From: Candidatus Avoscillospira stercoripullorum
GTDB lineage: Bacteria > Bacillota > Clostridia > Oscillospirales > Oscillospiraceae
NCBI GenBank assembly: GCA_018712905.1
Contig: DVGD01000076.1
Coordinates: 1 to 38,374 of the forward strand
Direction: 5' to 3'
Length of the DNA stretch: 38,374 bases
Positions 1,561-38,374 of this stretch are shown in pieces (the first letter of the stretch is position 1; every line of letters begins with the position of its first letter). The notes beneath the pieces are model-generated. The model was not told where the DNA came from. It searched no databases and was given only the letters and a program-made list of their open reading frames with translations. The position numbers and the translations under genes were made by a program.

Positions 1561-1839
1561 ATGAGGAGGAGGCGATCAAGGGTGGAACGACAAAAAGGCA
1601 GCGGAATTGCAACATTTCTATCCATATTATATGTAGCAGCGGCACTGGCGCTTCTCTTGGGCGTGTGTGGCTGGTGCTATCCGGAGTTCTCCCAGCGGGC
1701 AAAGGAAGTCCTTGGAGGCTGGGAAAATGGACAGGTGCGGCAGGCCTTCAGCACCCTTGCAGAAGGCCTGGAGGCAGGAGAGCCGGTGAAAGAGACCCTC
1801 TCTGAGTCGATTGAGGTGCTGCTGGGTGAAGAAAATTAG
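1561..1839 (+). CDS. Small single-pass membrane protein, function unknown
   Basis: I used the ATG at 1561, because the longer track ORF from 1357 runs through the tRNA gene. The 92-aa product has a basic N-terminus MRRRRSRVERQK, one hydrophobic helix (IATFLSILYVAAALALLLGVCGW) and an acidic tail. Its end overlaps the start of the next gene. Confidence 0.55.
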   Translation: MRRRRSRVERQKGSGIATFLSILYVAAALALLLGVCGWCYPEFSQRAKEVLGGWENGQVRQAFSTLAEGLEAGEPVKETLSESIEVLLGEEN

Positions 1840-2383
1840 GGTAACGCTGGGATTTGCGGCAGTGGTTTGCCTGCTGGGGTGGTGCGATCTCGGGCTGTGC
1901 GGATGGTTTTTGCTGGCATTATTGCTCCATGAATTGGGGCATCTGGCGGTGTTGGCATGCTTTCACCGACCCATTCGAGGGATTACCCTGGGAGCGGGCG
2001 GGGCAAAAATAGAGACGGAGGGACTCAGCTACCGGCAAGAGGCGCTCTCCGCGGCGGCGGGACCGGCAGTCAATCTCCTGTCGGCAGGATTGACGCTGCG
2101 GACTTTTCCGGTTTTTGCGCTGGTGAGCCTTGCGCTGGCGGCGGTGAATTTGCTGCCGCTCTATCCCATGGACGGCGGCCGCATTCTCCGCGCCTCGCTG
2201 CTCTCTCGCCTGCCGCCGGAGCGGGCGGGGCGCATTCTCCGACTGTGCGTCTATCTCACCTGTACAACGCTGATGGTGGGCGCTTGCTGGCTGACTGCCA
2301 TGCGCCAGGCGGGGCTGTGGCCGATCTTTGCGGCGCTGGTGCTATTGTGCAGGGCTGGCAATGCAGCAGCAGAGATTTGCTAA
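1811..2383 (+). CDS. M50 family site-2 metalloprotease, short SpoIVFB-like form
   Basis: It has an HELGH zinc motif inside a TM helix and the NLLPLYPMDGGRIL (NxxPxxxLDGG-type) second motif, and it is polytopic. The start is uncertain: TTG at 1811, or GTG at 1826 with GAGG about 9 nt upstream. Confidence 0.8.
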   Translation: MRCCWVKKIRVTLGFAAVVCLLGWCDLGLCGWFLLALLLHELGHLAVLACFHRPIRGITLGAGGAKIETEGLSYRQEALSAAAGPAVNLLSAGLTLRTFPVFALVSLALAAVNLLPLYPMDGGRILRASLLSRLPPERAGRILRLCVYLTCTTLMVGACWLTAMRQAGLWPIFAALVLLCRAGNAAAEIC

Positions 2384-2390
2384 AAATACC

Positions 2391-2419
2391 TTCCATTTTT
2401 TTGCATAATTTGGTATACT
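2391..2419 (+). promoter_or_regulatory. Putative sigma-A promoter with extended -10
   Basis: TTCCAT (2391-2396), a 17-nt spacer, then TGgTATACT (TG at 2411-2412, -10 at 2414-2419). A TGCACCAAGGTGCA palindrome lies just downstream. Confidence 0.55.
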
Positions 2420-2469
2420 GATGGTATGCACCAAGGTGCACAAGAAAATGAGAAGGAGGAGAGGGGAAA

Positions 2470-3249
2470 GTGTGCATTCCCTTCAAAGAAAAAATGAAAC
2501 AACATAATCGTTGGATGGCCTGGTTTCTCAGTGTTTTCATGCTCTTGAGCATGGCGGCATGCGCGTCGGACAAGGCGGATCCCACTACAACACCGGAAAG
2601 CACCCAGAAAGAAGAGACCATTCTTGACGAGAAGGAAGCGATCCAGCTGGAGGAGGAAGAGCCGGAGGAGCGCCAAGAGGACGAAGAGAGCGAAGACGCC
2701 GGATATGAGCTGGGAATCATTGACGGCTTGACCTTTACCAATGACTTTATGGGCATTTCCTGCACGCTGCCGGAGGACTGGGTCTATGCCTCGGAGGCGG
2801 AAATTGCTGAGCTCAACGGCGTAGTTCTTGAAATGTTTGAGGACAATGAGGAAGTTGCGGAGCTCATGAAGAATTCCACCAGCATCTATGATGCAGTTGC
2901 TTATTCCGGCGATGGACTCTGTAATTTTAATATTATCGCGGAGAATATGGGGCTTCTCTACGGCGTGCTCATCGATGAAAAAGAGTATGCGGAGATTACG
3001 GTGGAGCAGGTAAAGAGCATCTATGAAACGGCCGGCTATGCCAATGTCCAAAGTGAAATCACCGAGAGGGAGATCTTTGGAGAAGAGCATGTGACCATTT
3101 ACACCACCTCTACATTGCCGGAAGCGCAGGGCGGAATGGACATGTACCAGCTGCAAATTCTCAAGAAAAACGGGAACTTTATGGGCGTCATCAGCATTGC
3201 GAGCTTTGTGGAGGATCGCACGGAGGAGATTGCCTCCTGGTTTTTCTAA
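2470..3249 (+). CDS. Putative lipoprotein with an acidic low-complexity linker, function unknown
   Basis: GTG at 2470 follows a GGAGGAG RBS, with an alternative ATG at 2494. The signal peptide ends in the lipobox-like LSMAAC. An E/D-rich stretch (EEEEPEERQEDEESED) follows. Confidence 0.75.
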   Translation: MCIPFKEKMKQHNRWMAWFLSVFMLLSMAACASDKADPTTTPESTQKEETILDEKEAIQLEEEEPEERQEDEESEDAGYELGIIDGLTFTNDFMGISCTLPEDWVYASEAEIAELNGVVLEMFEDNEEVAELMKNSTSIYDAVAYSGDGLCNFNIIAENMGLLYGVLIDEKEYAEITVEQVKSIYETAGYANVQSEITEREIFGEEHVTIYTTSTLPEAQGGMDMYQLQILKKNGNFMGVISIASFVEDRTEEIASWFF

Positions 3250-3273
3250 GGGGTGGAGCACCACAAATTCAGG

Positions 3274-3302
3274 TTGCTTTTCCGGTGCCGGACGGGTAAA
3301 AT
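3274..3302 (+). promoter_or_regulatory. Putative sigma-A promoter
   Basis: TTGCTT (3274-3279), a 17-nt spacer, then TAAAAT (3297-3302), about 30 nt upstream of the radical SAM CDS. Confidence 0.6.
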
Positions 3303-3332
3303 AGACCCAAAACGCTGCAAAGGAAGAAAACT

Positions 3333-27403: not shown

Positions 27404-28005
27404 TGCTGCACGGCGCCATTTACTACTTCCTTTATGTGGCCTGCCGCTTCGGCCTTTTCTTCTATCACCCCATTTTTCGCGTAATTGGCCGGGAAAATGT
27501 GCCCAAGGAAGGGCGGCTGATGATCTGCGCCAACCACAGCGGTCTCGCGGATCCCATCTGGATCATCATGGCGCTGAAGATGGGACATATGCCCCGGGTC
27601 ATGGCCAAGAAAGAGGCATTTGACGTTCCGATCCTGGGCTGGTTTCTCCGCAGCATCGGCGTTTTTGGCATCGACCGGGAGGGGATGGACATCGGCGGCA
27701 TCAAAACCGGCATCAAGTGCCTCAGGGAGAACCAGCAGCTGATGGTATTCCCGGAGGGTACCCGGGTACGGCCTGGAAAGGTGGTCAAGCCCAAAAAGGG
27801 CGCCCTGCTTCTGGCGGCCAGAACAGATGCGCCGGTGCTTCCCGTCTATCTCACGGTGAAGCGGCATCCCTTCAGCAAGCTCACCTGCGTCATCGGAAAG
27901 CCGTACCACCCTGCCTACGGCAGCAAGAAGCCCACGGAGGAGGAGCTGGAGACGGCCACCCAGGAGCTGATGGAGAAGATCTACCGCTTGGGGGAGACGG
28001 CATGA
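27403..28005 (+). CDS. plsC: 1-acyl-sn-glycerol-3-phosphate acyltransferase
   Basis: NHSGLADP (HxxxxD) and FPEGTR acyltransferase motifs. The product is 200 aa. Confidence 0.88.
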   Translation: MLHGAIYYFLYVACRFGLFFYHPIFRVIGRENVPKEGRLMICANHSGLADPIWIIMALKMGHMPRVMAKKEAFDVPILGWFLRSIGVFGIDREGMDIGGIKTGIKCLRENQQLMVFPEGTRVRPGKVVKPKKGALLLAARTDAPVLPVYLTVKRHPFSKLTCVIGKPYHPAYGSKKPTEEELETATQELMEKIYRLGETA

Positions 28006-29954
28006 AGGTCATATTGGCCAAGACGGCCGGATTTTGCTTTGGTGTGGATCGTGCGGTATCCCTAGTGGAAGAAGCCGTGGCGCAGGGAAAACAGGTGGCA
28101 ACCCTGGGACCCATCATTCACAACCGCCATGTGACGGCGCATTTTGCTGAGAAAGGCGTGCGGGAGCTCCAGGAGCCCGAGGAGGCGCAGCCGGGGAGCG
28201 TGGTGGTGATTCGCTCCCATGGGATCTCCCGTGCCGTCTATGAGCGTCTCCAGGTACAGGATGTGGAGATTGTCGATGCCACGTGTCCCTTTGTCAAGCG
28301 AATCCATAAAATTGTGCTGCGGGCGGAGGAGCAGGGGCGACTGCCGGTGATTATCGGCACCAAGAGCCATCCCGAGGTGCAGGCCATCGCCGGCTGGTGC
28401 AAGCATCCGCTGGTCTTCGAAACACCGGAGGAGCTGTCGAGCTGGCTGCAAGAGGATCCTGCACGCTGCCATTTGCCCCTCACCATGGTCTCTCAGACCA
28501 CCAGCACACAGAATTTATGGGAAAGATGCAGGAAAATTATAAAAAAAGAGTGTACAAACGGCGAAATATTTGATACAATATGCGAAGCAACAGAAAATAG
28601 GCAGAAGGAAGCAAACGAGCTGTCACAAAGCTGCGATGCGATGGTTGTCATAGGCGATTCCATGAGCTCCAACACCAAGCGGCTTGCCATGATCTGTGGG
28701 CAACATTGCAAGGATGTTGTACTGGTGGAAGATGCCTGTGGGCTGGACGTATCGCATTTTTCGTCTGCGCGGTCTGTTGGTATCACGGCGGGGGCGTCCA
28801 CTCCGGCGTGGATAATAAAGGAGGTCAACAACATAATGAGCGAAGAAATCAAGGTTGAAACTGCCCAGGAGGAAGACTTTGCCGAGCTTCTCGAGCAGTC
28901 TATCAAGACTTTAAATAACGGAGATAAGGTCACAGGCATTGTAACTGCCATTGGCGCCACCGAGATTCAGGTGGACCTGGGTACAAAGCACGCAGGTTAT
29001 ATCCCTGTTGATGATTTCAGCTCCGATCCTTCCGTGAAGCCGGAAGATGTTCTGAAAGTCGGCGACGAGATTGAGGTGCTGGTGGTGCACGTCAATGATT
29101 CCGAGGGTACGGCGCGTCTTTCCAAGAAGCGTCTGGAAGCCGGCAAGGCTTGGGAAGAGATTGAGGCCGCTGCGGAGAGCAAGGCCGTTGTTGAGGGTCT
29201 CATTACCGAGGAGAACAAGGGCGGCATCGTGGCCAATGTCAAGGGCGTCCGTGTGTTCATCCCCGCCTCTCAGACTGGTGTGCCCAAGGGCGGCGACCTG
29301 TCTAAGCTGGTGAAGACCACCGTGCAGATGAAGATTACCGAGGTCAACCGTGCCCGCCGCCGTGTGGTCGGCTCCATTCGTGCCGTGACCAACGAGCTGC
29401 GCAAGGCTGCTCAGGAGAAGATCTGGGCTGAGATCGAAGTGGGCAAGAAGTATCATGGCGTTGTCAAGAGCCTCACCTCTTATGGCGCCTTTGTGGACAT
29501 TGGCGGCGTGGACGGCATGGTGCATGTCTCTGAGTTGTCCTGGAACCGCATCAAGAATCCCGCCGAGGTGGTCAAGGTGGGTGACGAGATCGAGGTCTTT
29601 GTCATCTCCTACGATCCCGAGAAGAAGAAGATCTCCCTGGGCTACAAGACCCCCGAGACCAACCCCTGGAACATTTTCCTGAACCAGTACAAGGTTGGCG
29701 ATGTGGCCAAGGTGAAGATCGTCAAGCTGATGACCTTCGGCGCCTTTGCTGAGATCATTCCCGGTGTGGACGGCCTGATCCATATTTCTCAGATTGCCGA
29801 TCGCCGCATCGGCAAGCCCGAGGATGTGCTCTCTGAGGGTCAGGAAGTGGATGCCAAGATCATCGACATCGACGCCGAGAACAAGCGCATCAGCCTCTCC
29901 ATCCGCGCGCTGCTCACCGCAGCGGAGGACGAAGCTCCCGCTGTCGAGGAATAA
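28002..29954 (+). CDS. ispH: Bifunctional 4-hydroxy-3-methylbut-2-enyl diphosphate reductase (IspH) / ribosomal protein S1-domain fusion
   Basis: ATG at 28002 forms an ATGA overlap with the plsC stop; the track start at 27717 lies inside plsC. The N-terminal ~280 aa are IspH-like (AKTAGFCFGVDRAV, DATCPFV, VSQTT, SSNTKRL). The C-terminal half carries four S1 repeats (GDKVTG, VEGLI, GKKYHGVVKSLTSYGAFVDIGGVDGMVHVSE, GDVAKVKIVKLMTFGAFAEI). Confidence 0.92.
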   Translation: MKVILAKTAGFCFGVDRAVSLVEEAVAQGKQVATLGPIIHNRHVTAHFAEKGVRELQEPEEAQPGSVVVIRSHGISRAVYERLQVQDVEIVDATCPFVKRIHKIVLRAEEQGRLPVIIGTKSHPEVQAIAGWCKHPLVFETPEELSSWLQEDPARCHLPLTMVSQTTSTQNLWERCRKIIKKECTNGEIFDTICEATENRQKEANELSQSCDAMVVIGDSMSSNTKRLAMICGQHCKDVVLVEDACGLDVSHFSSARSVGITAGASTPAWIIKEVNNIMSEEIKVETAQEEDFAELLEQSIKTLNNGDKVTGIVTAIGATEIQVDLGTKHAGYIPVDDFSSDPSVKPEDVLKVGDEIEVLVVHVNDSEGTARLSKKRLEAGKAWEEIEAAAESKAVVEGLITEENKGGIVANVKGVRVFIPASQTGVPKGGDLSKLVKTTVQMKITEVNRARRRVVGSIRAVTNELRKAAQEKIWAEIEVGKKYHGVVKSLTSYGAFVDIGGVDGMVHVSELSWNRIKNPAEVVKVGDEIEVFVISYDPEKKKISLGYKTPETNPWNIFLNQYKVGDVAKVKIVKLMTFGAFAEIIPGVDGLIHISQIADRRIGKPEDVLSEGQEVDAKIIDIDAENKRISLSIRALLTAAEDEAPAVEE

Positions 29955-29964
29955 TCGATCTCAT

Positions 29965-29996
29965 AGCCCCCGGTCATGATGACTGGGGGCTTTTTT
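29965..29996 (+). terminator. Rho-independent terminator after ispH-S1
   Basis: AGCCCCCGGTCA / TGACTGGGGGCT stem (one G-U pair) followed by TTTTTT. Confidence 0.85.
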
Positions 29997-30028
29997 GCGC
30001 CCATACCCCATAGAAAGAAGGTTTTGAG

Positions 30029-30928
30029 ATGGAATCTGCTGCCATACAGGAGATACTTCAAACAATGACCTGCCCCTTTTCCCCGGCACAGGCGTCGCTG
30101 ACACAGCTTGTCCATGAGGAGGACGGCGCGCCCTACCAGGTATATCGGATTGAGGCGGATGGTAAGCACTATATTCTGAAACAGGCCAAGGAATACGAGG
30201 CGGAGGTCTACCAAAAGCTCCTCAAGGACGCGGGCAGCTGCGTTCCCAAGATCTACGCCACGGCTGAGGCGGCGGGCGAGACGTACCTTCTGATGGAATA
30301 TATCCCAGGGGGAGACCTGCGCAACTGCACCAGGCATGCTCTGATTTTGGCGCTGGACGCCCTCATCGCCCTGCAAAAGAGTTACTGGAACAGCGATTCT
30401 ACCGTGGGCTACACCTATGAAGAGAGCCTTGTCCACCGCAAAAAGCGGGGCACATACCTCTGCGACCCTCAGCTGGAACAGGCCTATGAGATCTTTCTCA
30501 AAGACTATGCATCGCTTCCGCGCACCCTCTGCCACGATGATCTCTTGCCCTTTAACGTGCTGTTTGCCGGAGAGCGTGCGGTGTTCATCGACTGGGAGTT
30601 TGCCGGGATCCTGCCCTATCCCACTTCCTTTGCCCGGCTCATTGCCCATGGGGAGGAGGACGAGAACGCATTCTTCCATATGACTGCCGCCGACCGGGAA
30701 TTTGCCATTGACTATTACTATGAAAAGCTCCTGGCGGAACAGGGGATATCCTACAGAGCATGGCGCGAAGCCCTCTTGTCATTTCTCCTGTACGAGGCCT
30801 GCGAATGGGTGATGATCGGAAACAAATACGGCGAGAAGGACAGTCCGTACTTTCAAAAGTATCTTCCCATGGCCAAGCACCTGGCGGAGGAGATGCAAAA
30901 GCGCACAGCGGGAGCACCTTGTGAATGA
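30029..30928 (+). CDS. Aminoglycoside/choline-kinase-like phosphotransferase (APH family) protein
   Basis: 299-aa ORF with kinase-fold motifs: HYILK (beta3 Lys), LCHDDLLPFNVL (HxDxxxxN catalytic loop) and FIDWEFAG (metal-binding Asp). Confidence 0.8.
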   Translation: MESAAIQEILQTMTCPFSPAQASLTQLVHEEDGAPYQVYRIEADGKHYILKQAKEYEAEVYQKLLKDAGSCVPKIYATAEAAGETYLLMEYIPGGDLRNCTRHALILALDALIALQKSYWNSDSTVGYTYEESLVHRKKRGTYLCDPQLEQAYEIFLKDYASLPRTLCHDDLLPFNVLFAGERAVFIDWEFAGILPYPTSFARLIAHGEEDENAFFHMTAADREFAIDYYYEKLLAEQGISYRAWREALLSFLLYEACEWVMIGNKYGEKDSPYFQKYLPMAKHLAEEMQKRTAGAPCE

Positions 30929-30932
30929 CTGC

Positions 30933-30961
30933 TTGTATATTCATGAATAATGTGATATACT
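30933..30961 (+). promoter_or_regulatory. Putative sigma-A promoter (extended -10) for the large ncRNA
   Basis: TTGTAT (30933-30938), a 17-nt spacer, then TGaTATACT (TG at 30953-30954, -10 at 30956-30961). It begins 5 nt after the APH-like stop codon, and no RBS or plausible start follows it. Confidence 0.65.
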
Positions 30962-30967
30962 GTAAAC

Positions 30968-31612
30968 GATAATGGCGCAGTATCCTAGTCAGCGCCACCG
31001 GCTCCCAGGAAGGGCCTAAAAATCCTTTGAAGGGCATAACTGTGAAACCTCTGGTGCTTGCTTCTTACGCCCAGTTTGGGGTGAGTGCTGGAGGAAGGCG
31101 TAACAATTACGCCTGCGGCGGAAGGGCGGTCTTCAATGGCATGAAGATCCCGACCCTGCCGTTGTGGAGACCCACTGTTGTGCAGACGCGTACTCCCCAG
31201 TGGTCGAAGCGACGTCTGTACGAGGTGGGATGTAAACCTGCAATGCGGTGCAAGGGCTTGCCCGAGCGCTGTGTGCAGAGTAGCCTGCCTTGCGTGAGCA
31301 GATCGGGACTGCGGTCAGGCATGCAGACCCCTGGCCAGGGGCGAGGCATGATATTGCCGCACGAAAGCCTGCTTGCAAAAGAGGATAAGAGTCGGAGGGC
31401 GCTGTGGTGGAAATCACCTAGGCTGTCTTTCATAGAGCAGATAAGGGATTGCAGTACGGACTCAGTGGCAATCGGGTCGCTTTCTTGGCAACGGAAAGAC
31501 GGCGGCTTTCATGGGAAACCACTCCACCGGCGACGGGGAGCAGCCTCCGGGGAAATCCTACCCGACCTAAGCCGTAAGCTTAATCTTATCTGCTGCCATT
31601 ATTCTTGAGAAT
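30968..31612 (+). ncRNA. ole: Large structured non-coding RNA, candidate OLE (ornate, large, extremophilic) RNA
   Basis: About 645 nt between the predicted promoter and the RBS of the next gene. Only mutually overlapping, RBS-less, R/C/W/G-rich ORFs occur here, on both strands. There are many short GC hairpins: TGGCGC/GCGCCA 30973-30997, GGCGTA-acaat-TACGCC 31097-31113, CCACTG/CAGTGG 31172-31203, CCCGA/TCGGG 31261-31307, CCCCT-GGCC-AGGGG 31328-31341, GGTG-gaaat-CACC 31406-31418, TGG-GAAA-CCA 31512-31521 and GGAG-cagc-CTCC 31537-31548. The downstream synteny (4-TM protein, dxs, tlyA, nadK, argR, recN) matches the known OLE/oapA locus. Boundaries are approximate, and the family was not verified by a covariance model. 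Confidence 0.7.
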
Positions 31613-31624
31613 TGAGGGAGTATC

Positions 31625-32224
31625 TTGCAGCAAAACCAGGGGAAAAAGTCCAAAAAGCTGAAAATCAAGCCGGACTGGCACTGGATCACCACGATCTTTG
31701 GCACGACCATCGGCATCTCCGCCGCCATGTCCTTTCTCTCCAATGAGATGTTGTCCGGCGGCGGCCTTATATTATCCTTTGCCGTTCTCCTGGTCATTAT
31801 CTTGATCGGTATTCTCTTTGATATTATCGGCGTGTCGGTGACGGCTGCGGAGGAAAAGCCCTTTCACTCCATGGCCGCAAAAAAAGTGCCCGAGGCCAGA
31901 GAAGCGCTGAAAATGCTGCGCCGTGCCGAGCGGGTTTCCTCCTTCTGCAACGACGTGGTGGGCGACATCTGCGGCGTCATCTCCGGTTCTGCCGCCGCCG
32001 TCATCGCCGCAAAGGCCATCACCGGCATGAGCCCTGTGTTGGGGAGCGTGGTGCAGCTCCTGCTGTCCGCCGTGGTGGCCGGGCTCACCGTGGGCGGAAA
32101 GGCGTTTGGAAAGTCCATCGCCATGAATAACAGCACGGCCATAATTCATGCGGCGGCGAAAGTGATGTATCTCGTAAAATCTCTGCCCGGCCGTGTGACG
32201 CGCCGGAAGGGGGACAGGGGATAG
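31625..32224 (+). CDS. oapA: Four-helix integral membrane protein, candidate OLE-associated protein A (OapA)
   Basis: TTG start follows a GAGGGAG RBS at 31614-31620. The 199-aa product has a basic N-terminus (KKSKKLKIK) and four predicted TM helices (ITTIFGTTIGISAAMSFL, LILSFAVLLVIILIGILFDIIGV, FCNDVVGDICGVISGSAAAVIAA, VVQLLLSAVVAGLTVGG). It lies between the ncRNA and dxs. Confidence 0.7.
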   Translation: MQQNQGKKSKKLKIKPDWHWITTIFGTTIGISAAMSFLSNEMLSGGGLILSFAVLLVIILIGILFDIIGVSVTAAEEKPFHSMAAKKVPEAREALKMLRRAERVSSFCNDVVGDICGVISGSAAAVIAAKAITGMSPVLGSVVQLLLSAVVAGLTVGGKAFGKSIAMNNSTAIIHAAAKVMYLVKSLPGRVTRRKGDRG

Positions 32225-32233
32225 GAGCCAGCT

Positions 32234-34081
32234 ATGTTACTCAATGAAATCCACACCCGGGCGGATTTACTTCGCCTGACGCCCCAGGAAAATCAGCAGC
32301 TCTGCGGAGAGATTCGCGAATTCCTGGTGCGGCACATCGCCAGAACCGGCGGCCACCTGGCCTCCAATCTGGGCGTGGTGGAGCTGACCGTTGCCCTGCA
32401 TCAGGTCTATGATACGGAGAAGGACAGAATTCTCTTTGATGTGGGGCATCAGTCCTATGTCCATAAGATTCTCACCGGGAGAATGGATCGGTTTTCCACC
32501 CTGCGCACCTATGGCGGCCTGGCTGGCTTTCCCAAGCCCTCAGAGAGCGTGCACGACGCGTTTATTGCCGGACATGCCTCGGAGTCGGTTTCCGTGGCGC
32601 TGGGCATGGCGCGGGCGAGAACCCTGCTCCACGAGGATTACAGCGTGGTGGCGGTTCTGGGCGATGGGGCGCTGACGGGAGGTCTTGCCTACGAAGGACT
32701 CAACGACGCCGGCGCCAGCGGAGAGCCGCTTGTGGTGGTGCTCAATGATAACGGCATGTCCATCACCACCAACGTGGGCGCCATTTCCCGGCACCTGAAG
32801 CTCTTGCGGCTCAAGCCCGGCTATTTTGATCTGAAAAAGGCATACCGGCAGTTCACCCGGAAAATTCCCGGCGGTGCGGCGCTCTACCGCTTTACCCATG
32901 GACTCAAGACCAGGCTGCGCCGCCGCTTGATTGGCGTGACGATTTTTGAGGAGATGGGATTTTCATATCTTGGCCCCGTGGACGGCCATGATGTGGAGAA
33001 GCTCAAATTCCTCCTCAAGGAGGCCAAGGGGATGAACTGCCCGGTTCTCCTCCATGTTATCACCAAGAAGGGGAAGGGCTATATTCCCGCGGAGGTCACG
33101 CCGTCCAAGTATCACGGCGTGGGGCGCTTTAATCCGGTCACCGGTCTCAGCGCCGGGGGCAGTGGGAAGAGCTTCTCAGAAACCTTTGGCCAGACGCTTT
33201 GCGACCTTGCCATCGAGGATCAGCGAATTTGCGCCATTACGGCTGCCATGGAGCAGGGGACGGGACTATCCCAATTTGCTGCCAGCTTCCATGATCGATA
33301 TTTCGATGTGGGCATTGCCGAAGGGCATGCCGTTTCCATGGCGGCAGGGCTTGCCAAGCAGGGACTGCTGCCGGTCTTTGCCGTGTATTCTACGTTCTTG
33401 CAGCGAAGCTACGACATGCTCCAGCAGGACGTGGGGCTTCTAGGGCTTCATGTGGTGCTGGCGGTGGATCGCGCCGGATTGGTGGGTGAGGACGGCGAAA
33501 CCCACCATGGCGTCTTTGACGTGGGGTATCTGCGCCAGATCCCGGGCATGACGGTGTTCTGCCCGGCCAGCCAGGCGGAGCTTCGCCGGATGCTCCGGGA
33601 GGCCATTTTGGAGACAAGCGGCCCCGTGGCGGTGCGCTATCCCCGCGGCGGAAACGGCGCCTACGATGGCGCGGTGTGGGAAAATCAGTGCTGCGACGCG
33701 CCTGCTGTGACCATTGTCACCTATGGTATCACCATCAACGATGTTTTGGCGACCGTCAAGCGGCTGCGGGACGAGCATATTTCCGTGGATCTCATCAAGC
33801 TCGATCAGATTGCGCCCCTTCACTTGGAGCCCGTCCGGCAATCCCTCGCGCACAGCGGAAAGCTCCTGGTGGTAGAAGAAACTGCTGCTGCCGGATGCGT
33901 GGGCAGCGCGATTCTCGCCCAGCTGGTGCAAGAGGGTGCTGCACCCAATGCAGTGCGGCTTATCAACCTCCAGTCCGGCTTGGTGCCCCACGGAAGCCTC
34001 CCCCTGCTGCGCCATCGTACCGGCTTGGATGAAGCGGGGATTTATCAAGCGACAAAGGAGTTGATTGGCCTTGAAGCATAA
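32234..34081 (+). CDS. dxs: 1-deoxy-D-xylulose-5-phosphate synthase
   Basis: 615-aa ORF with GGHLASNLGVVELTVALH, GHQSYVHKILTGR and the TPP-binding motif GDGALTGG. Confidence 0.96.
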   Translation: MLLNEIHTRADLLRLTPQENQQLCGEIREFLVRHIARTGGHLASNLGVVELTVALHQVYDTEKDRILFDVGHQSYVHKILTGRMDRFSTLRTYGGLAGFPKPSESVHDAFIAGHASESVSVALGMARARTLLHEDYSVVAVLGDGALTGGLAYEGLNDAGASGEPLVVVLNDNGMSITTNVGAISRHLKLLRLKPGYFDLKKAYRQFTRKIPGGAALYRFTHGLKTRLRRRLIGVTIFEEMGFSYLGPVDGHDVEKLKFLLKEAKGMNCPVLLHVITKKGKGYIPAEVTPSKYHGVGRFNPVTGLSAGGSGKSFSETFGQTLCDLAIEDQRICAITAAMEQGTGLSQFAASFHDRYFDVGIAEGHAVSMAAGLAKQGLLPVFAVYSTFLQRSYDMLQQDVGLLGLHVVLAVDRAGLVGEDGETHHGVFDVGYLRQIPGMTVFCPASQAELRRMLREAILETSGPVAVRYPRGGNGAYDGAVWENQCCDAPAVTIVTYGITINDVLATVKRLRDEHISVDLIKLDQIAPLHLEPVRQSLAHSGKLLVVEETAAAGCVGSAILAQLVQEGAAPNAVRLINLQSGLVPHGSLPLLRHRTGLDEAGIYQATKELIGLEA

Positions 34082-34877
34082 GGAACGGCTGGATGTGCTT
34101 CTGGTGGAGCGCGGCCTTTCGGAGAGCCGCACCAAGGCACAGGCCGTCATCATGAGCGGCGAGGTCTATGTGGACGGGCAGAAGGCAGATAAGCCCGGCG
34201 CGTCCTATGACCTGGAGGCCAAGATTGAAGTGCGCGGCAGCGTCTGCCCGTATGTGAGCCGCGGCGGGCTCAAGCTCGAAAAGGCGCTGCGGGACTTCGG
34301 CGTGGATCCCACGGGCTATGTTTGCAGCGACTCCGGCGCCTCCACCGGCGGCTTTACCGACTGCCTGCTGCAGCAGGGCGCCAGGAAGGTCTTTGCCATT
34401 GATGTGGGCTACGGCCAGCTGGCCTGGAAAATCCGCAACGATCCCCGGGTGGTGACCATGGAGCGCACCAACATCCGCTATGTCACCCACGAGCAGCTGG
34501 GCGAGCCGCTGGATCTCTCGGTGGTGGATGTTTCGTTTATTTCCCTCAAGCTGGTGCTCCCGGCCATCCGGGCGCTGCTCAAGCCCGATTGCGGCCAGGT
34601 ACTCTGCCTCATCAAGCCGCAGTTTGAGGCGGGCAAGGATCGCGTGGGCAAGAAGGGCGTGGTGCGCGACCCGGAAGTACATCGAGAGGTTCTGGAGCAG
34701 TTTGTGGAGACGGCCAAGGCGCTTTCCTTTACCATTTTGAATCTCACCTTCTCGCCGGTCAAGGGACCCGAGGGGAACATCGAGTTTTTGGGTCACCTGA
34801 GCCTGCGACCCGGGATCGACAACATTCCGCCCCTGGAGGAATTGGTCTCCCAGGCGCATGAAGCATTGAAGGGGTGA
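34065..34877 (+). CDS. tlyA: TlyA family rRNA (cytidine-2'-O)-methyltransferase
   Basis: It has an S4-like N-terminus (RLDVLLVERGLSESRTKAQ) plus VSRGGLKLEKAL, GASTGGFTDCLLQ and DVGYGQL. The start is TTG 34065 or 34071, after AAAGGAG. Confidence 0.9.
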   Translation: MALKHKERLDVLLVERGLSESRTKAQAVIMSGEVYVDGQKADKPGASYDLEAKIEVRGSVCPYVSRGGLKLEKALRDFGVDPTGYVCSDSGASTGGFTDCLLQQGARKVFAIDVGYGQLAWKIRNDPRVVTMERTNIRYVTHEQLGEPLDLSVVDVSFISLKLVLPAIRALLKPDCGQVLCLIKPQFEAGKDRVGKKGVVRDPEVHREVLEQFVETAKALSFTILNLTFSPVKGPEGNIEFLGHLSLRPGIDNIPPLEELVSQAHEALKG

Positions 34878-34880
34878 GCC

Positions 34881-35741
34881 ATGAAAATTGTAATGACTCC
34901 CAATCCCTACCGGGATCGAAATTTCAAGTACGTGGAGCAGGCGGTGGAAATCCTCCAGAAGGCAGGCGCCGAGACCAAGATCTGCCTGCCCTTCGACGTG
35001 GACAAGAATTTTGAGCTGCCCAAAACGGTGCGGTTTTTTGACATTCATCGGGAAATCAAGAATGCGGATCTGCTCATCTGCTTTGGCGGGGACGGCACCA
35101 TTCTCCATGCCTCCAAGATTGCCACCCGTCACCATGTGCCCATTCTCGGCGTCAACATCGGCACCATGGGCTTTATGGCGGAGCTGGAGGCCGGGGAGCT
35201 GGAGCTCCTCTCCCGGCTCCCTGCCAACGACTACCGGGTGGAAAAGCGCATGATGCTCCGCGCCACGGTGCGCAGTGAGGGAAAGGTGCTCTTTGACGAG
35301 CTGGCGCTCAACGACGCCGCTATTACCAAGGGCGCCATTGCCCGGGTGATTCAGCTGTCGGTGGAGTGCGACGGCGTGGAGGCCACGGCCTTCTCCGGCG
35401 ACGGCGTCATTGTCAGCACACCCACCGGCTCCACGGCCTACTCCATGTCTGCCGGCGGCCCCATTGTGGAGCCCTCGGCGCAGAATATCATCATCACCCC
35501 CATCTGCGCCCATGCCATCCATGCCAAGAGCATCGTCACCGCGCCCTGGCGCACCATCACCGTGCGGATGGGAAAGCTGGGGCGGCGCAATGCCTTCCTC
35601 TCAGTGGACGGCGGCCGCGCCTTCCGCCTCAACGTGGGCGACGCGGTGACCATTCGCAAGGCCGAGCAGGAGACGCGGCTGGTGAGGCTGAAGGATACCA
35701 GCTTTTACCAGATCATCAACAATAAATTTTACGTCCCATAA
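34881..35741 (+). CDS. nadK: NAD kinase
   Basis: GGDGTILHA, NDAAI and GDGVIVSTPTGSTAYSMSAGGPIV motifs. The product is 286 aa. Confidence 0.95.
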   Translation: MKIVMTPNPYRDRNFKYVEQAVEILQKAGAETKICLPFDVDKNFELPKTVRFFDIHREIKNADLLICFGGDGTILHASKIATRHHVPILGVNIGTMGFMAELEAGELELLSRLPANDYRVEKRMMLRATVRSEGKVLFDELALNDAAITKGAIARVIQLSVECDGVEATAFSGDGVIVSTPTGSTAYSMSAGGPIVEPSAQNIIITPICAHAIHAKSIVTAPWRTITVRMGKLGRRNAFLSVDGGRAFRLNVGDAVTIRKAEQETRLVRLKDTSFYQIINNKFYVP

Positions 35742-35752
35742 GGAGCTGTGCC

Positions 35753-36205
35753 ATGAAACCCAACAGACAGGCGAAAATTTTGGAATTGATTGAAACCAAG
35801 GACATTGAAACCCAAGAGCAGCTCCTGCAGGAGCTGGAGGCCTGCGGCTTTGCCACCACCCAGGCGACGATCTCCCGCGATATCAAGGAGCTTCGCATCA
35901 TCAAGGAACTGGGGGAGAACGGCAGCTACCGCTACAGCGCCGTGCCCAAGCAGCTCGAGAGCAACGCAACGGCCAAGCTCCACAACATCTTCCGCCAGTG
36001 CGTGGTTTCCTGCGACTATGCCCAGAATATCGTCGTGATGAAGACCATGCCTGGGCTCGCCTCGGCAGCCTGCTCTGCCATGGATTCCATGAATATGGAC
36101 ATGATCGTGGGCACCCTGGCCGGGGATGACACGGCATTTCTCCTCCTGCGGGACACGCCCTCGGCGGCGGCCTTGTGCGCGGACATCAAAAAGCAGATCA
36201 ACTGA
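35753..36205 (+). CDS. argR: Arginine repressor
   Basis: 150-aa ORF with a winged-helix N-terminus (RQAKILELIETKDIETQEQLLQELEACGFATTQATISRDIKEL) and a C-terminal GTLAGDDT motif. Confidence 0.94.
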   Translation: MKPNRQAKILELIETKDIETQEQLLQELEACGFATTQATISRDIKELRIIKELGENGSYRYSAVPKQLESNATAKLHNIFRQCVVSCDYAQNIVVMKTMPGLASAACSAMDSMNMDMIVGTLAGDDTAFLLLRDTPSAAALCADIKKQIN

Positions 36206-36223: not shown

Positions 36224-37876
36224 ATGCTTAGCTTACTCCATATCGAGAATATCGCCGTGATCGAGCAGGCGGAAATCAGCTTTGACCGGGGCTTCAACGT
36301 CCTCACCGGCGAGACCGGTGCAGGCAAGTCCATTGTCATCGACGCCATCTCCGCCATTCTCGGCGAGCGAACATACCGGGATGTGATCCGCACCGGCACA
36401 GACCGCGCCTTTGTGAGCGCCGTTTTTACTGACGTGCCGGAGTTACCTTGGTTTGCGGAAAACCGGGTGCCCTACGCGCCGGAGGAGCTGCTCATCCAGC
36501 GGGAAATCTACGGCGATGGAAAGAACGTTTGCCGGGTGAACGGGCGGCCTGTCACCGTGGCGCTTCTCAAAAAGCTGGGGGCGTCCCTCATCAACATCCA
36601 TGGCCAGCACGATTCCCAGCAGCTCTTTGACGAGACAAAGCACCTGGGTTACCTCGACCTCTTCGCCCGCAACCAGGCTGAGCAGGCGGCCTATCAGGAG
36701 GCCTATGGCCGCGTGGAGGCGCTGCGCAGGGAGAAGGAGCGCCTGACCATGGACGATGGAGAAAAGCTCCGCAGGGTGGAGGCGCTTCAATTCCAGCTGG
36801 AGGAGATTCAGCGCGCCCAGCTCCAGCCCGGGGAGGATGAAGCGCTGGAGCAAAGCCGCAAACGGCTCCAGAACGCGGAAAAGCTCTCCGAGCACTTGGC
36901 GCTGGCCGTGGCTGCCCTCTCCGGCGGCGAGGAGGAATCGGGCGCGGTGGATCTTTTGGGGGAGGCGGAGCACGCCATCTCCCGGATCACGCGCTTTGAC
37001 GACGCGCTCCAGCCCTTCTGTGAGCGGTTATCAGCGCTCCAATATGAGGCGCAGGATCTCTCCGGGGAGCTTCGCGACCGGCTGGAGCAGCTGGCCTATT
37101 CCGGGGAAGAGCTCGAGCAGATTGAAAGCCGATTGGATGTGCTCCACCGGCTCAAGCGGAAATATGGCGGCAGCGTGGAGGACATTCTCCAGTATGCCCA
37201 GCGCGCCCAGCAGGAGCTCGACGAGATTACCTTCTCTGAGGAGCGCCTGGCGCAGCTCGAAGCGGATCTTGGCGAGGCGACCGCCCAGGCCGAGGCGGCG
37301 GGGCTTACCCTGCGGAAGACGCGCCAGGCGGCTGCTGCGGCCATGGAGCAGCGGCTTTCGAAGGAGCTGGCTGCTCTGGATATGCCCCGGGCGCAGTTTG
37401 TCTGCGAGCTGGAGGAGATTCCGCTCTCTCCCTCCGGCATGGATCAGCTGCGGTTTTTGATGACGGCCAACGTGGGCGAAGCCCTCAAGCCCTTGAGCAA
37501 GGTGGCCTCCGGCGGCGAGCTGGCGCGGATCATGCTGGCTATCAAGAATGTGCTGGCCGAGCAGGATCAGGTGGGCACGCTGATTTTTGACGAGGTGGAC
37601 GCCGGCGTCAGCGGCCGCGCCGCCCAGAAGGTGGCGGAGAAGCTTCGAAGCGTCTCCCGCAGCAAGCAAGTGCTCTGCGTCACGCACCTTCCCCAGATTG
37701 CCGCAGCGGCGGATGTGCACCTGCTCATCGCCAAAACCGAGCGACAGGGGAGAACCTATACCCAGGTGACCCGGCTGGATCGGGCTGGAAGAACCAGAGA
37801 GATTGCCCGGATCATCGGCGGCGCGGAGATCACGGAGACCACCCTGCGCAGCGCCGAGGAGATGCTTTCCGGTTGA
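36224..37876 (+). CDS. recN: DNA repair protein RecN
   Basis: 550-aa ORF with LLHIENIAVIE, Walker A GETGAGKSI, a coiled-coil middle region, the SMC signature ASGGELARIMLAIK and Walker B LIFDEVDAG. Confidence 0.95.
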   Translation: MLSLLHIENIAVIEQAEISFDRGFNVLTGETGAGKSIVIDAISAILGERTYRDVIRTGTDRAFVSAVFTDVPELPWFAENRVPYAPEELLIQREIYGDGKNVCRVNGRPVTVALLKKLGASLINIHGQHDSQQLFDETKHLGYLDLFARNQAEQAAYQEAYGRVEALRREKERLTMDDGEKLRRVEALQFQLEEIQRAQLQPGEDEALEQSRKRLQNAEKLSEHLALAVAALSGGEEESGAVDLLGEAEHAISRITRFDDALQPFCERLSALQYEAQDLSGELRDRLEQLAYSGEELEQIESRLDVLHRLKRKYGGSVEDILQYAQRAQQELDEITFSEERLAQLEADLGEATAQAEAAGLTLRKTRQAAAAAMEQRLSKELAALDMPRAQFVCELEEIPLSPSGMDQLRFLMTANVGEALKPLSKVASGGELARIMLAIKNVLAEQDQVGTLIFDEVDAGVSGRAAQKVAEKLRSVSRSKQVLCVTHLPQIAAAADVHLLIAKTERQGRTYTQVTRLDRAGRTREIARIIGGAEITETTLRSAEEMLSG

Positions 37877-37907: not shown

Positions 37908-38154
37908 GTTACAAGCGAGGAAAAGGAAGAGTACGGCAGATCACGCCCTCAAGAGAGCCTCCGGCTGGTGGAAGGAGGCGGACGTCCTGCCCGAATACGC
38001 CTTGGAGCTGCGGCCTGAAGGAGAGTAGGGCTTGCCGGGTTTGCCCGTTACAGCTTGGAGTTTATACTCCCTGAGGCCGCATCCGCGAGGCTGCGGCGAA
38101 CATGAGGTGGTACCGCGAAATTTCGCCCTCTGTCCAAAGGACAGGGGGCTTTTT
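37908..38154 (+). promoter_or_regulatory. T-box riboswitch leader, specifier codon UAC (tyrosine)
   Basis: Stem I has GCGAGGA...GAAGAGTA, the AGAGAG bay, the distal loop GGCTGGTGGAA, and GGCAG/CTGCC closing a specifier loop GAA-TAC-G (TAC at 37996-37998). Further elements are the F-box CCCGTTA, Stem III GCCGCA/TGCGGC and the T-box sequence AGGTGGTACCGCG (38105-38117). The terminator is GCCCTCTGTCC-aaa-GGACAGGGGGC followed by TTTTT (38125-38154). Confidence 0.9.
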
Positions 38155-38155
38155 G

Positions 38156-38374
38156 ATGCTTTACGGCAGAGAACTGATCGACCAATTCCCGGTGCGCAAA
38201 TCCAAAAAGCAAAAGGCGGCATTCCGGGAAACCGTGCTTTCCTATGGAGCGGCACAGGGCTATGCGGGCAAGGTGGAATCCGGTACCTTCGGCTCCAAAA
38301 ATGTGGTATTCGGCGATCCAGAGCAGGCAGAATACTTGGTGACCGCCCACTATGACACCTGTGCGCGGCTGCCC
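38156..38374 (+). CDS. Partial CDS (5' end only), probable M28-family zinc peptidase-like protein
   Basis: ATG at 38156 is open to the window end (73 codons) and is not in the ORF track because it has no stop. A GGGGG RBS candidate lies inside the 3' arm of the T-box terminator. The sequence NVVFGDPEQAEYLVTAHYDTCARLP resembles the N-terminal region of clostridial M28-like peptidases. The functional call is tentative. Confidence 0.5.
   Translation, partial: MLYGRELIDQFPVRKSKKQKAAFRETVLSYGAAQGYAGKVESGTFGSKNVVFGDPEQAEYLVTAHYDTCARLP

Follow-up and report, generated by a model that had tools for sequence, protein, structure and literature searches.

We analyzed a 38,374-nucleotide (nt) stretch of DNA from the gut bacterium Candidatus Avoscillospira stercoripullorum (contig DVGD01000076.1, positions 1 to 38,374; hereafter the window) and propose, with a probability of about 0.97, that the region at positions 30929-31624 is a full-length ole gene, encoding the ornate, large, extremophilic (OLE) RNA. 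We base this assignment on a match over the full length of the family's covariance model, on covariation of the helices among relatives, and on evidence that the region does not code for a protein. OLE RNAs were described in 2006, are curated in Rfam, and have been studied genetically, biochemically and by cryo-electron microscopy (cryo-EM); they have been catalogued in about 2,800 GTDB species, including lineages of gut metagenome-assembled genomes (MAGs) (PMC11332333). The window OLE is an ordinary member of this already known family, and the find is not new.

A scan of the whole window against Rfam returned RF01071 (OLE RNA) at 412 bits (gathering score 50; E = 8.4e-118), and no other Rfam family reached its gathering threshold in the region. 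The match spans model positions 1-616 of 616, so it is not truncated, and its E value excludes chance as the source. The original prediction, made from the letters of the sequence without database searches, had called an OLE-class RNA here and named the covariance-model search as the way to check it; the full-length hit bears the call out. All conserved blocks of the model are matched in the window RNA (in the family, about 25% of nucleotides are more than 97% conserved), and P7, P8, the long P9 and the P13 tip all align, as is characteristic of the full-length type. With the k-turn and the taxonomy of the host set aside (see below), every OLE-defining feature that can be assessed from sequence is present, and nothing counts against membership in the family.

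At its ends the match extends into flanking elements, with the first ~10 model positions falling on the -10 box of a promoter and the last ~10 on the ribosome-binding site (RBS) region of the downstream gene, oapA. The outermost helix, P1, is formed by GAUAAUGGC at 30968-30976 and its complement GCCAUUAUU at 31595-31603. The RNA proper is probably delimited by the outer ends of P1 (Table 1), which gives ~636 nt, in keeping with the length of about 600 nt used to define the family.

Conservation of the RNA structure in relatives

Relatives were drawn from species-representative genomes by homology to the OapA candidate encoded directly downstream of the region. This protein has 535 relatives among those genomes. 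The best, at 67-72% identity over the aligned segment, come from Oscillospiraceae gut MAGs such as those of Candidatus Avilachnospira; Papillibacter cinnamivorans and Thermosediminibacter litoriperuensis are among the more distant. OLE is characteristic of anaerobic or extremophilic Bacillota, and the OapA relatives, at up to 72% identity, point to an uncultured, Oscillospiraceae-like gut Clostridium as the probable host. We scanned 16 of these Oscillospiraceae and Clostridia loci for OLE, and all 16 carry a full-length OLE RNA (404-530 bits) immediately 5' of the gene for the OapA homologue.

The window RNA and its 16 relatives were aligned with MAFFT, and the 17-sequence alignment was folded by RNAalifold without the Rfam structure. 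OLE has an ornate secondary structure of about 25 helices. The RNAalifold consensus contains 182 pairs, 96 of which have, in one or more sequences, both partners exchanged with pairing kept, and its covariation term is -22.85 kcal/mol. Covariation in relatives, the second check named in the original prediction, is strong. P1 is among the helices with compensatory changes (alignment columns 17-23 with 672-678), and in P13 three pairs (columns 554-572) have double compensatory changes in 9 or 10 of the 17 sequences. More than 230 alignment columns are invariant, with Thermosediminibacter and Papillibacter included.

Motifs for dimerization and protein binding

As read from the sequence, all named functional motifs of OLE are intact in the window RNA: the P4 loop, L5.1, L6.1, the GGCC loop, the P13 loop with its bulge, and the P14.1 loop (Table 1). 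The A-rich loop of P4 is a dimerization contact in cryo-EM models of OLE, and in the same models L5.1 is the kissing-loop partner of L6.1 of the other monomer (PMC12265935). The spacing between these two loops in the window is 59 nt (31075-31133), of the same class as in the related loci L001 and L069. The loop of P9.3 contains the palindrome GGCC (31333-31336), which covaries in the family and forms the symmetric kissing loop of the OLE dimer (PMC12286853).

Two further hairpins correspond to contacts with the protein OapB. Binding of OapB depends on the GNRA tetraloop and the single-nucleotide bulge of P13 (PMC7936274), and the window P13 has a single-nucleotide bulge and a GCAA tetraloop (31488-31491). 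The tip of P14.1, which is a secondary, weak OapB site in Halalkalibacterium (Bacillus) halodurans (H. halodurans) (PMC7936274), carries a GCGA loop at 31530-31533. These GCAA and GCGA loops are the true GNRA loops of the RNA. The GAAA-capped hairpin that the original prediction pointed out reads GUG-GAAAU-CAC (31407-31417).

The original prediction had also suggested that CTTTC, GGAAAG and CTTTC segments in this part of the RNA could pair alternatively. The first pair is the stem of P13, which covaries strongly, and the second CTTTC (31506-31510) reads UUUAA, AUCAA or CUGAA in relatives. Because the second CTTTC is not kept, the alternative pairing is without comparative support, and we rejected a switch of this kind.

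An extra hairpin at the OapC site

Relative to the RF01071 model, the window RNA contains an insertion at J5/6 that folds into an extra, lineage-specific 17-nt hairpin with covarying stems (Table 1). A hairpin is found at this place in 26 of 62 loci, with sequences that differ from locus to locus and are self-complementary; its stems in relatives include GGUGCAG/CUGCACC and AAGCGCGG/CCGCGCUU, and the version in locus L071 is much longer. The remaining 36 loci are without it and read GGGGUUAAGG at J5/6.

In H. halodurans, J4a/5, J5/6 and the P6 shoulder make up the k-turn recognized by OapC (PMC9723947). The window J5/6 consists of GGAA, the 17-nt hairpin and UGCGG in place of UUAAGG, with the UUAA lost, and J4a/5 retains the ...C-UGU-GA... 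pattern. By inspection, no consensus k-turn or k-junction could be derived from these strands. The hairpin could turn the OapC k-turn into a three-way junction, or it could abolish dependence on OapC.

A conserved promoter in front of the RNA

The original prediction had located a promoter, TTGTAT-17-TGaTATACT, 5 nt past the upstream stop codon, and the elements lie where it placed them: a -35 hexamer TTGTAT (30933-30938), a 17-nt spacer, the TG of an extended -10 (30953-30954) and the -10 hexamer TATACT (30956-30961). When loci are anchored on their best -10 element, 60 of 64 distinct OLE loci show the extended -10 pattern (TGnTAnnnT). The window -10 hexamer stops 6 nt 5' of P1, and transcription is predicted to start at about 30967-30969, the foot of P1. 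The OLE promoter of H. halodurans, also proximal, increases expression of the RNA by a factor of more than 100, and 5' ends there have been mapped to the beginning of P1 (PMC3413148). At the level of sequence, the OLE promoter seen in the original prediction is real and conserved.

The most information-rich upstream part in the 64 loci is a CTTGTATATT block over the -35, which most OLE loci of Oscillospiraceae share, and the sequence farther upstream is unconserved. This conservation of the -35 and the spacer exceeds what a promoter requires. Speculatively, a regulator of OLE could use the conserved block CTTGTATATT(CATGAATA), which covers the -35 and spacer, as its operator, and ArgR, encoded by argR in the same cluster, could be one candidate for that regulator. 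The spacer region contains a palindrome, TATTCATGAATA (TATTCA/TGAATA; 30938-30949), which occurs once in the window and is present in full in only 9 of the 64 loci. ARG boxes are built of half-sites arranged as TGAAT-N4-ATTCA. The spacing here is ATTCA-0-TGAAT or TGAAT-N12-ATTCA, and for this reason, together with the count of full palindromes, we rejected TATTCATGAATA as a standard ARG box; an operator role is speculative because the half-site spacing misfits that box. Unpublished work, cited in published papers, connects ArgR with the OLE complex. As separate observations, another TGAAT lies 12 nt upstream, at 30922-30926, and in a second subgroup of loci the sequence is CTTGAATATTCAG, preceded by a repeat, TTGTATATTC.

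Taken as one proposal, that the window RNA is a J5/6-hairpin sub-variant of full-length OLE with a remodelled OapC site, and that its promoter is regulated, is tentative, and we think it unlikely to hold as a whole. If it is true, an Oscillospiraceae sub-lineage (the 26 of 62 loci with the hairpin) holds a structurally distinct full-length OLE sub-variant.

Alternative explanations for the region

Two features set limits to the assignment as a full-length ole gene. One is the weak -35 hexamer: a generic promoter scan, which needs four of six matches in each hexamer, missed the OLE promoter because its -35 matches TTGACA at only 3/6 positions. The other is that recognition of this RNA by OapC may differ, since the J5/6 strand is split by the hairpin and is without UUAA.

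We considered whether the region might be only a cis-acting 5' leader of the oapA-dxs operon, either riboswitch-like or an attenuator, and not a stable trans-acting RNA. The original prediction had held that no terminator separates the region from the next gene, whose RBS directly follows, and our results agree: a terminator scan found no terminator-like site between 30929 and 31625, and the Shine-Dalgarno sequence of oapA, GAGGGAG (31614-31620), begins 10 nt past P1. Such an arrangement would suit a leader, and in H. halodurans, too, a polycistronic RNA is made from the cluster and some OLE is co-transcribed with its neighbours. However, OLE in H. halodurans is a single, very stable and highly abundant product that forms a ribonucleoprotein (RNP) with OapA, OapB and OapC (PMC3413148), and the window RNA retains the dimerization and protein-binding motifs of that RNP. 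A conserved expression platform is lacking, as the alternative CTTTC pairing fails in relatives. We consider a leader-only role very improbable.

The region contains three open reading frames (ORFs), at 31027-31608 (+, 193 codons), 31107-31433 (-) and 31133-31417 (-), none of which has a Pfam match. Were the region protein-coding, the 193-codon ORF would be the gene, and automatic gene callers have indeed annotated products of 188 amino acids (aa) in L081 (1809-2375) and 185 aa in L085 (1299-1856), at about window positions 31040-31610. Other metagenome assemblies of the same sequence have no gene called inside OLE. This ORF has no Shine-Dalgarno site ahead of it, and the three ORFs show hardly any difference in G+C content between codon positions (0.55/0.54/0.61 for the 193-codon ORF, against about 0.65/0.40/0.75 in real genes of the window). 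The span of the 193-codon ORF contains 4-16 frame-shifting, non-triplet indels in each of the 16 relatives and is conserved as a frame in none; the orthologues retain open frames of at most 35-156 codons, in a frame that varies. Conservation in the region tracks base pairs, not codons. Because the frame is broken in all 16 relatives, the protein-coding explanation is refuted, and the view of the original prediction that the internal ORF is not a conserved protein stands.

Decay of the region into a non-functional OLE relic is almost inconceivable, for although its 412 bits lie below the scores of Thermosediminibacter (530) and Papillibacter (505) and parts of P9 align to the model with non-canonical positions, a lower score is common to the clade (404-419 bits in seven relatives) because of clade-specific insertions that themselves covary, all invariant blocks and oapA are intact, and the region is 99-100% identical (687-696 of 696 nt) across seven independent ENA metagenome assemblies. 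We therefore retain the full-length ole gene as the identity of the region.

Genes around OLE

The oapA-type gene begins 10 nt past the end of the Rfam match and 22 nt past P1. The published description of OapA gives it four membrane helices and, on the cytoplasmic side, a cluster of positive charges (PMC12265935), and the predicted product of 31625-32224 fits this description: a simple hydropathy scan gave hydrophobic segments at about residues 20-39, 46-72, 114-133 and 137-160 (mean Kyte-Doolittle 1.3-2.7), and a basic loop at 73-113 with 8 K/R is accompanied by basic N- and C-termini. Searches of Pfam, NCBIfam and PDB sequences returned no family for the protein. Because these family searches were empty, its identity as OapA rests on its homologues, which are always 3' of OLE.

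Our comparison of the gene cluster is based on 80 loci and on general statements about the cluster in the literature. The downstream order oapA-dxs-tlyA-nadK-argR-recN that the original prediction had read from the window is present by Pfam, and relatives have it too, with dxs following oapA in 78 of 80 related loci, tlyA in 74 and nadK in 70. Genes of OLE clusters have isoprenoid synthesis, translation and DNA repair as their theme, and argR has been named as a cluster member.

Table 1. Features of the ole locus in the window, with coordinates and the evidence for each.
Feature	Position	Strand	Evidence or remark
APH-family kinase/phosphotransferase gene	30029-30928	+	Pfam; stop TGA 30926-30928
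OLE-proximal sigma-A-type promoter, TTGTAT-17-TGaTATACT (predicted)	30933-30961	+	Sequence; conservation across loci
OLE RNA, RF01071 match	30956-31615	+	Rfam covariance model
OLE RNA proper, P1 to P1 (probable)	30968-31603	+	Complementarity; compensatory changes in P1
P4 hairpin with A-rich loop CCUAAAAA	31009-31028	+	Model alignment; invariant in 17 sequences
L5.1 loop CGCCCAG	31068-31074	+	Model alignment, 17-sequence alignment
Extra J5/6 hairpin GGCGUAA-CAA-UUACGCC, 17 nt	31097-31113	+	Insertion relative to RF01071 model
L6.1 loop CAAUGGCAUG	31134-31143	+	Model alignment, 17-sequence alignment
P9 tip (P9.3) CCCC-UGGCCA-GGGG	31328-31341	+	Model alignment, 17-sequence alignment
P13 hairpin CUUUC-U-UG-[GCAA]-CG-GAAAG	31480-31498	+	Sequence, model alignment
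P14.1 tip CCG-[GCGA]-CGG	31527-31536	+	Sequence, model alignment
oapA Shine-Dalgarno GAGGGAG	31614-31620	+	4 nt before TTG start, 10 nt after P1
oapA-type gene, 199 aa, TTG start at 31625	31625-32224	+	Hydropathy; homologues follow OLE
dxs	32234-34081	+	Pfam
tlyA-like FtsJ/S4 methyltransferase gene	34065-34877	+	Pfam
NAD kinase gene (nadK)	34881-35741	+	Pfam
argR	35753-36205	+	Pfam
recN	36224-37876	+	Pfam

Upstream, synteny breaks exactly at the OLE promoter. In none of the 80 related loci is OLE preceded by either of the genes found there in the window, ispH-rpsA and the APH-family gene, and the close relative L069 has tsaD-xseA-ispA in that position instead. The APH gene is strain-variable, being missing from two same-species assemblies (L085, L086 1072-1180); in these APH-free assemblies the OLE promoter is about 60 nt past the ispH-rpsA terminator and ~100 nt past the ispH-rpsA stop codon. 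The ispH-rpsA gene itself (27717-29954, +; likely true start near 28002) fuses IspH (LytB) to ribosomal protein S1, matches the bifunctional NCBIfam family NF000907 at 720.8 bits, and is another isoprenoid-pathway gene beside OLE. A strong hairpin resembling a terminator, CCCCCGGTC...GACTGGGGGCTTTTTT, lies 3' of this gene at ~29971-30000.

Beyond recN, a T-box leader is found at 37909-38133 (+; Rfam RF00230, 117.8 bits), whose specifier, from its position in the model alignment, is probably UAC (Tyr), at about 37996-37998. The ORF that follows (38156-38374, +) runs off the window. Longer contigs of the same species (L085 8404-10589) encode an M28 peptidase of 315 aa at this place, and its gene overlaps that of tyrosyl-tRNA synthetase; given this overlap behind the T-box, the T-box would therefore control the M28-tyrS pair.

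The original prediction had described the OLE region as by far the longest gap in the window. This holds among genes with family support, with the caveat that 2384-3332 (~950 nt) contains only unannotated ORFs, without a Pfam match, of which 2470-3249 (+) has a coding-like G+C pattern. Near that segment, a lone tRNA-Pro (CGG; 1407-1483, -) lies amid plus-strand housekeeping genes. The ORFs at 1357-1839 and 1811-2383 (+) overlap and may be a split gene; 1811-2383 alone matches the C-terminal part of Peptidase_M50, and it could belong to a frameshifted or truncated M50 gene.

Discussion

The closest point of reference for the window RNA is OLE of H. halodurans, the experimental model. The two belong to the same covariance-model family and share all of the helices P1-P15, a proximal promoter with its start (predicted for the window) at P1, and oapA directly 3'. 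The dxs, tlyA, NAD kinase, argR and recN genes of the H. halodurans cluster are also in the window, and the GNRA loop and one-nucleotide bulge of P13 and the GCGA loop of P14.1 are common to both RNAs. They differ in the P13 loop (GCAA in the window, GUGA in H. halodurans), at J5/6 (a 17-nt hairpin versus UUAA), and in their hosts, since the window comes from a relative of mesophilic gut anaerobes and H. halodurans is an alkaliphile. The upstream neighbours, ispH-rpsA and an APH-family kinase gene, are also unlike those of H. halodurans. The latter are xseA-ispA, a pair still found in L069, the closest relative.

Other OLE RNAs place the window RNA more precisely within the family. The OLEs of Clostridium acetobutylicum and C. 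botulinum, seen as dimers of 577-nt RNAs by cryo-EM, are bridged by loops whose consensus sequences are present in the window, which suggests that the window RNA would dimerize as well. It is about 60 nt longer than these Clostridium OLEs, owing to the J5/6 hairpin and to longer P7 and P8 tips. OLE variant 1 (TANB77) and variant 2 (RF39) come, like the window, from uncultured gut Bacillota (Fernando and Breaker 2024, PMC11332333). In these variants P7-P9 are shortened or missing and the OapB site is often absent (PMC11332333), whereas the window RNA is full-length. GOLLD, ROOL and raiA are, like OLE, large, highly structured non-coding RNAs of enigmatic biochemistry, with architectures and gene contexts unrelated to those of the window RNA.

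By analogy with the characterized systems, we propose the following course of events for the window RNA. OLE would be transcribed from a promoter of its own, and a polycistronic transcript with OLE at its 5' end is a probable second source; oapA is likely to be co-transcribed with OLE, given that no terminator separates the two and the oapA RBS lies 10 nt after P1. As in H. halodurans, OLE would accumulate as a stable RNA. Following the Clostridium cryo-EM structures, it would dimerize via the A-rich loop of P4, kissing of L5.1 with L6.1, and the GGCC palindrome in the P9 loop. OapA, with its four membrane helices, would tether the RNA to the membrane, and OapB would bind at the GNRA loop and bulge of P13. 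The resulting membrane RNP may aid adaptation to stresses such as short-chain alcohols, cold, excess Mg2+ and poor carbon sources.

The main value of this result lies in correct annotation. OLE ranks among the most intriguing of the large bacterial RNAs: it acts in stress adaptation as a dimeric RNP at the membrane, and its biochemical activity is still an enigma in the field. Such annotation has a practical side, as gene callers put a spurious protein of ~185 aa on OLE in metagenome assemblies. For OLE specialists, the locus adds three small comparative data points, namely the J5/6 hairpin, the conserved promoter block and the break in synteny at the promoter, which leave the picture of OLE unchanged.

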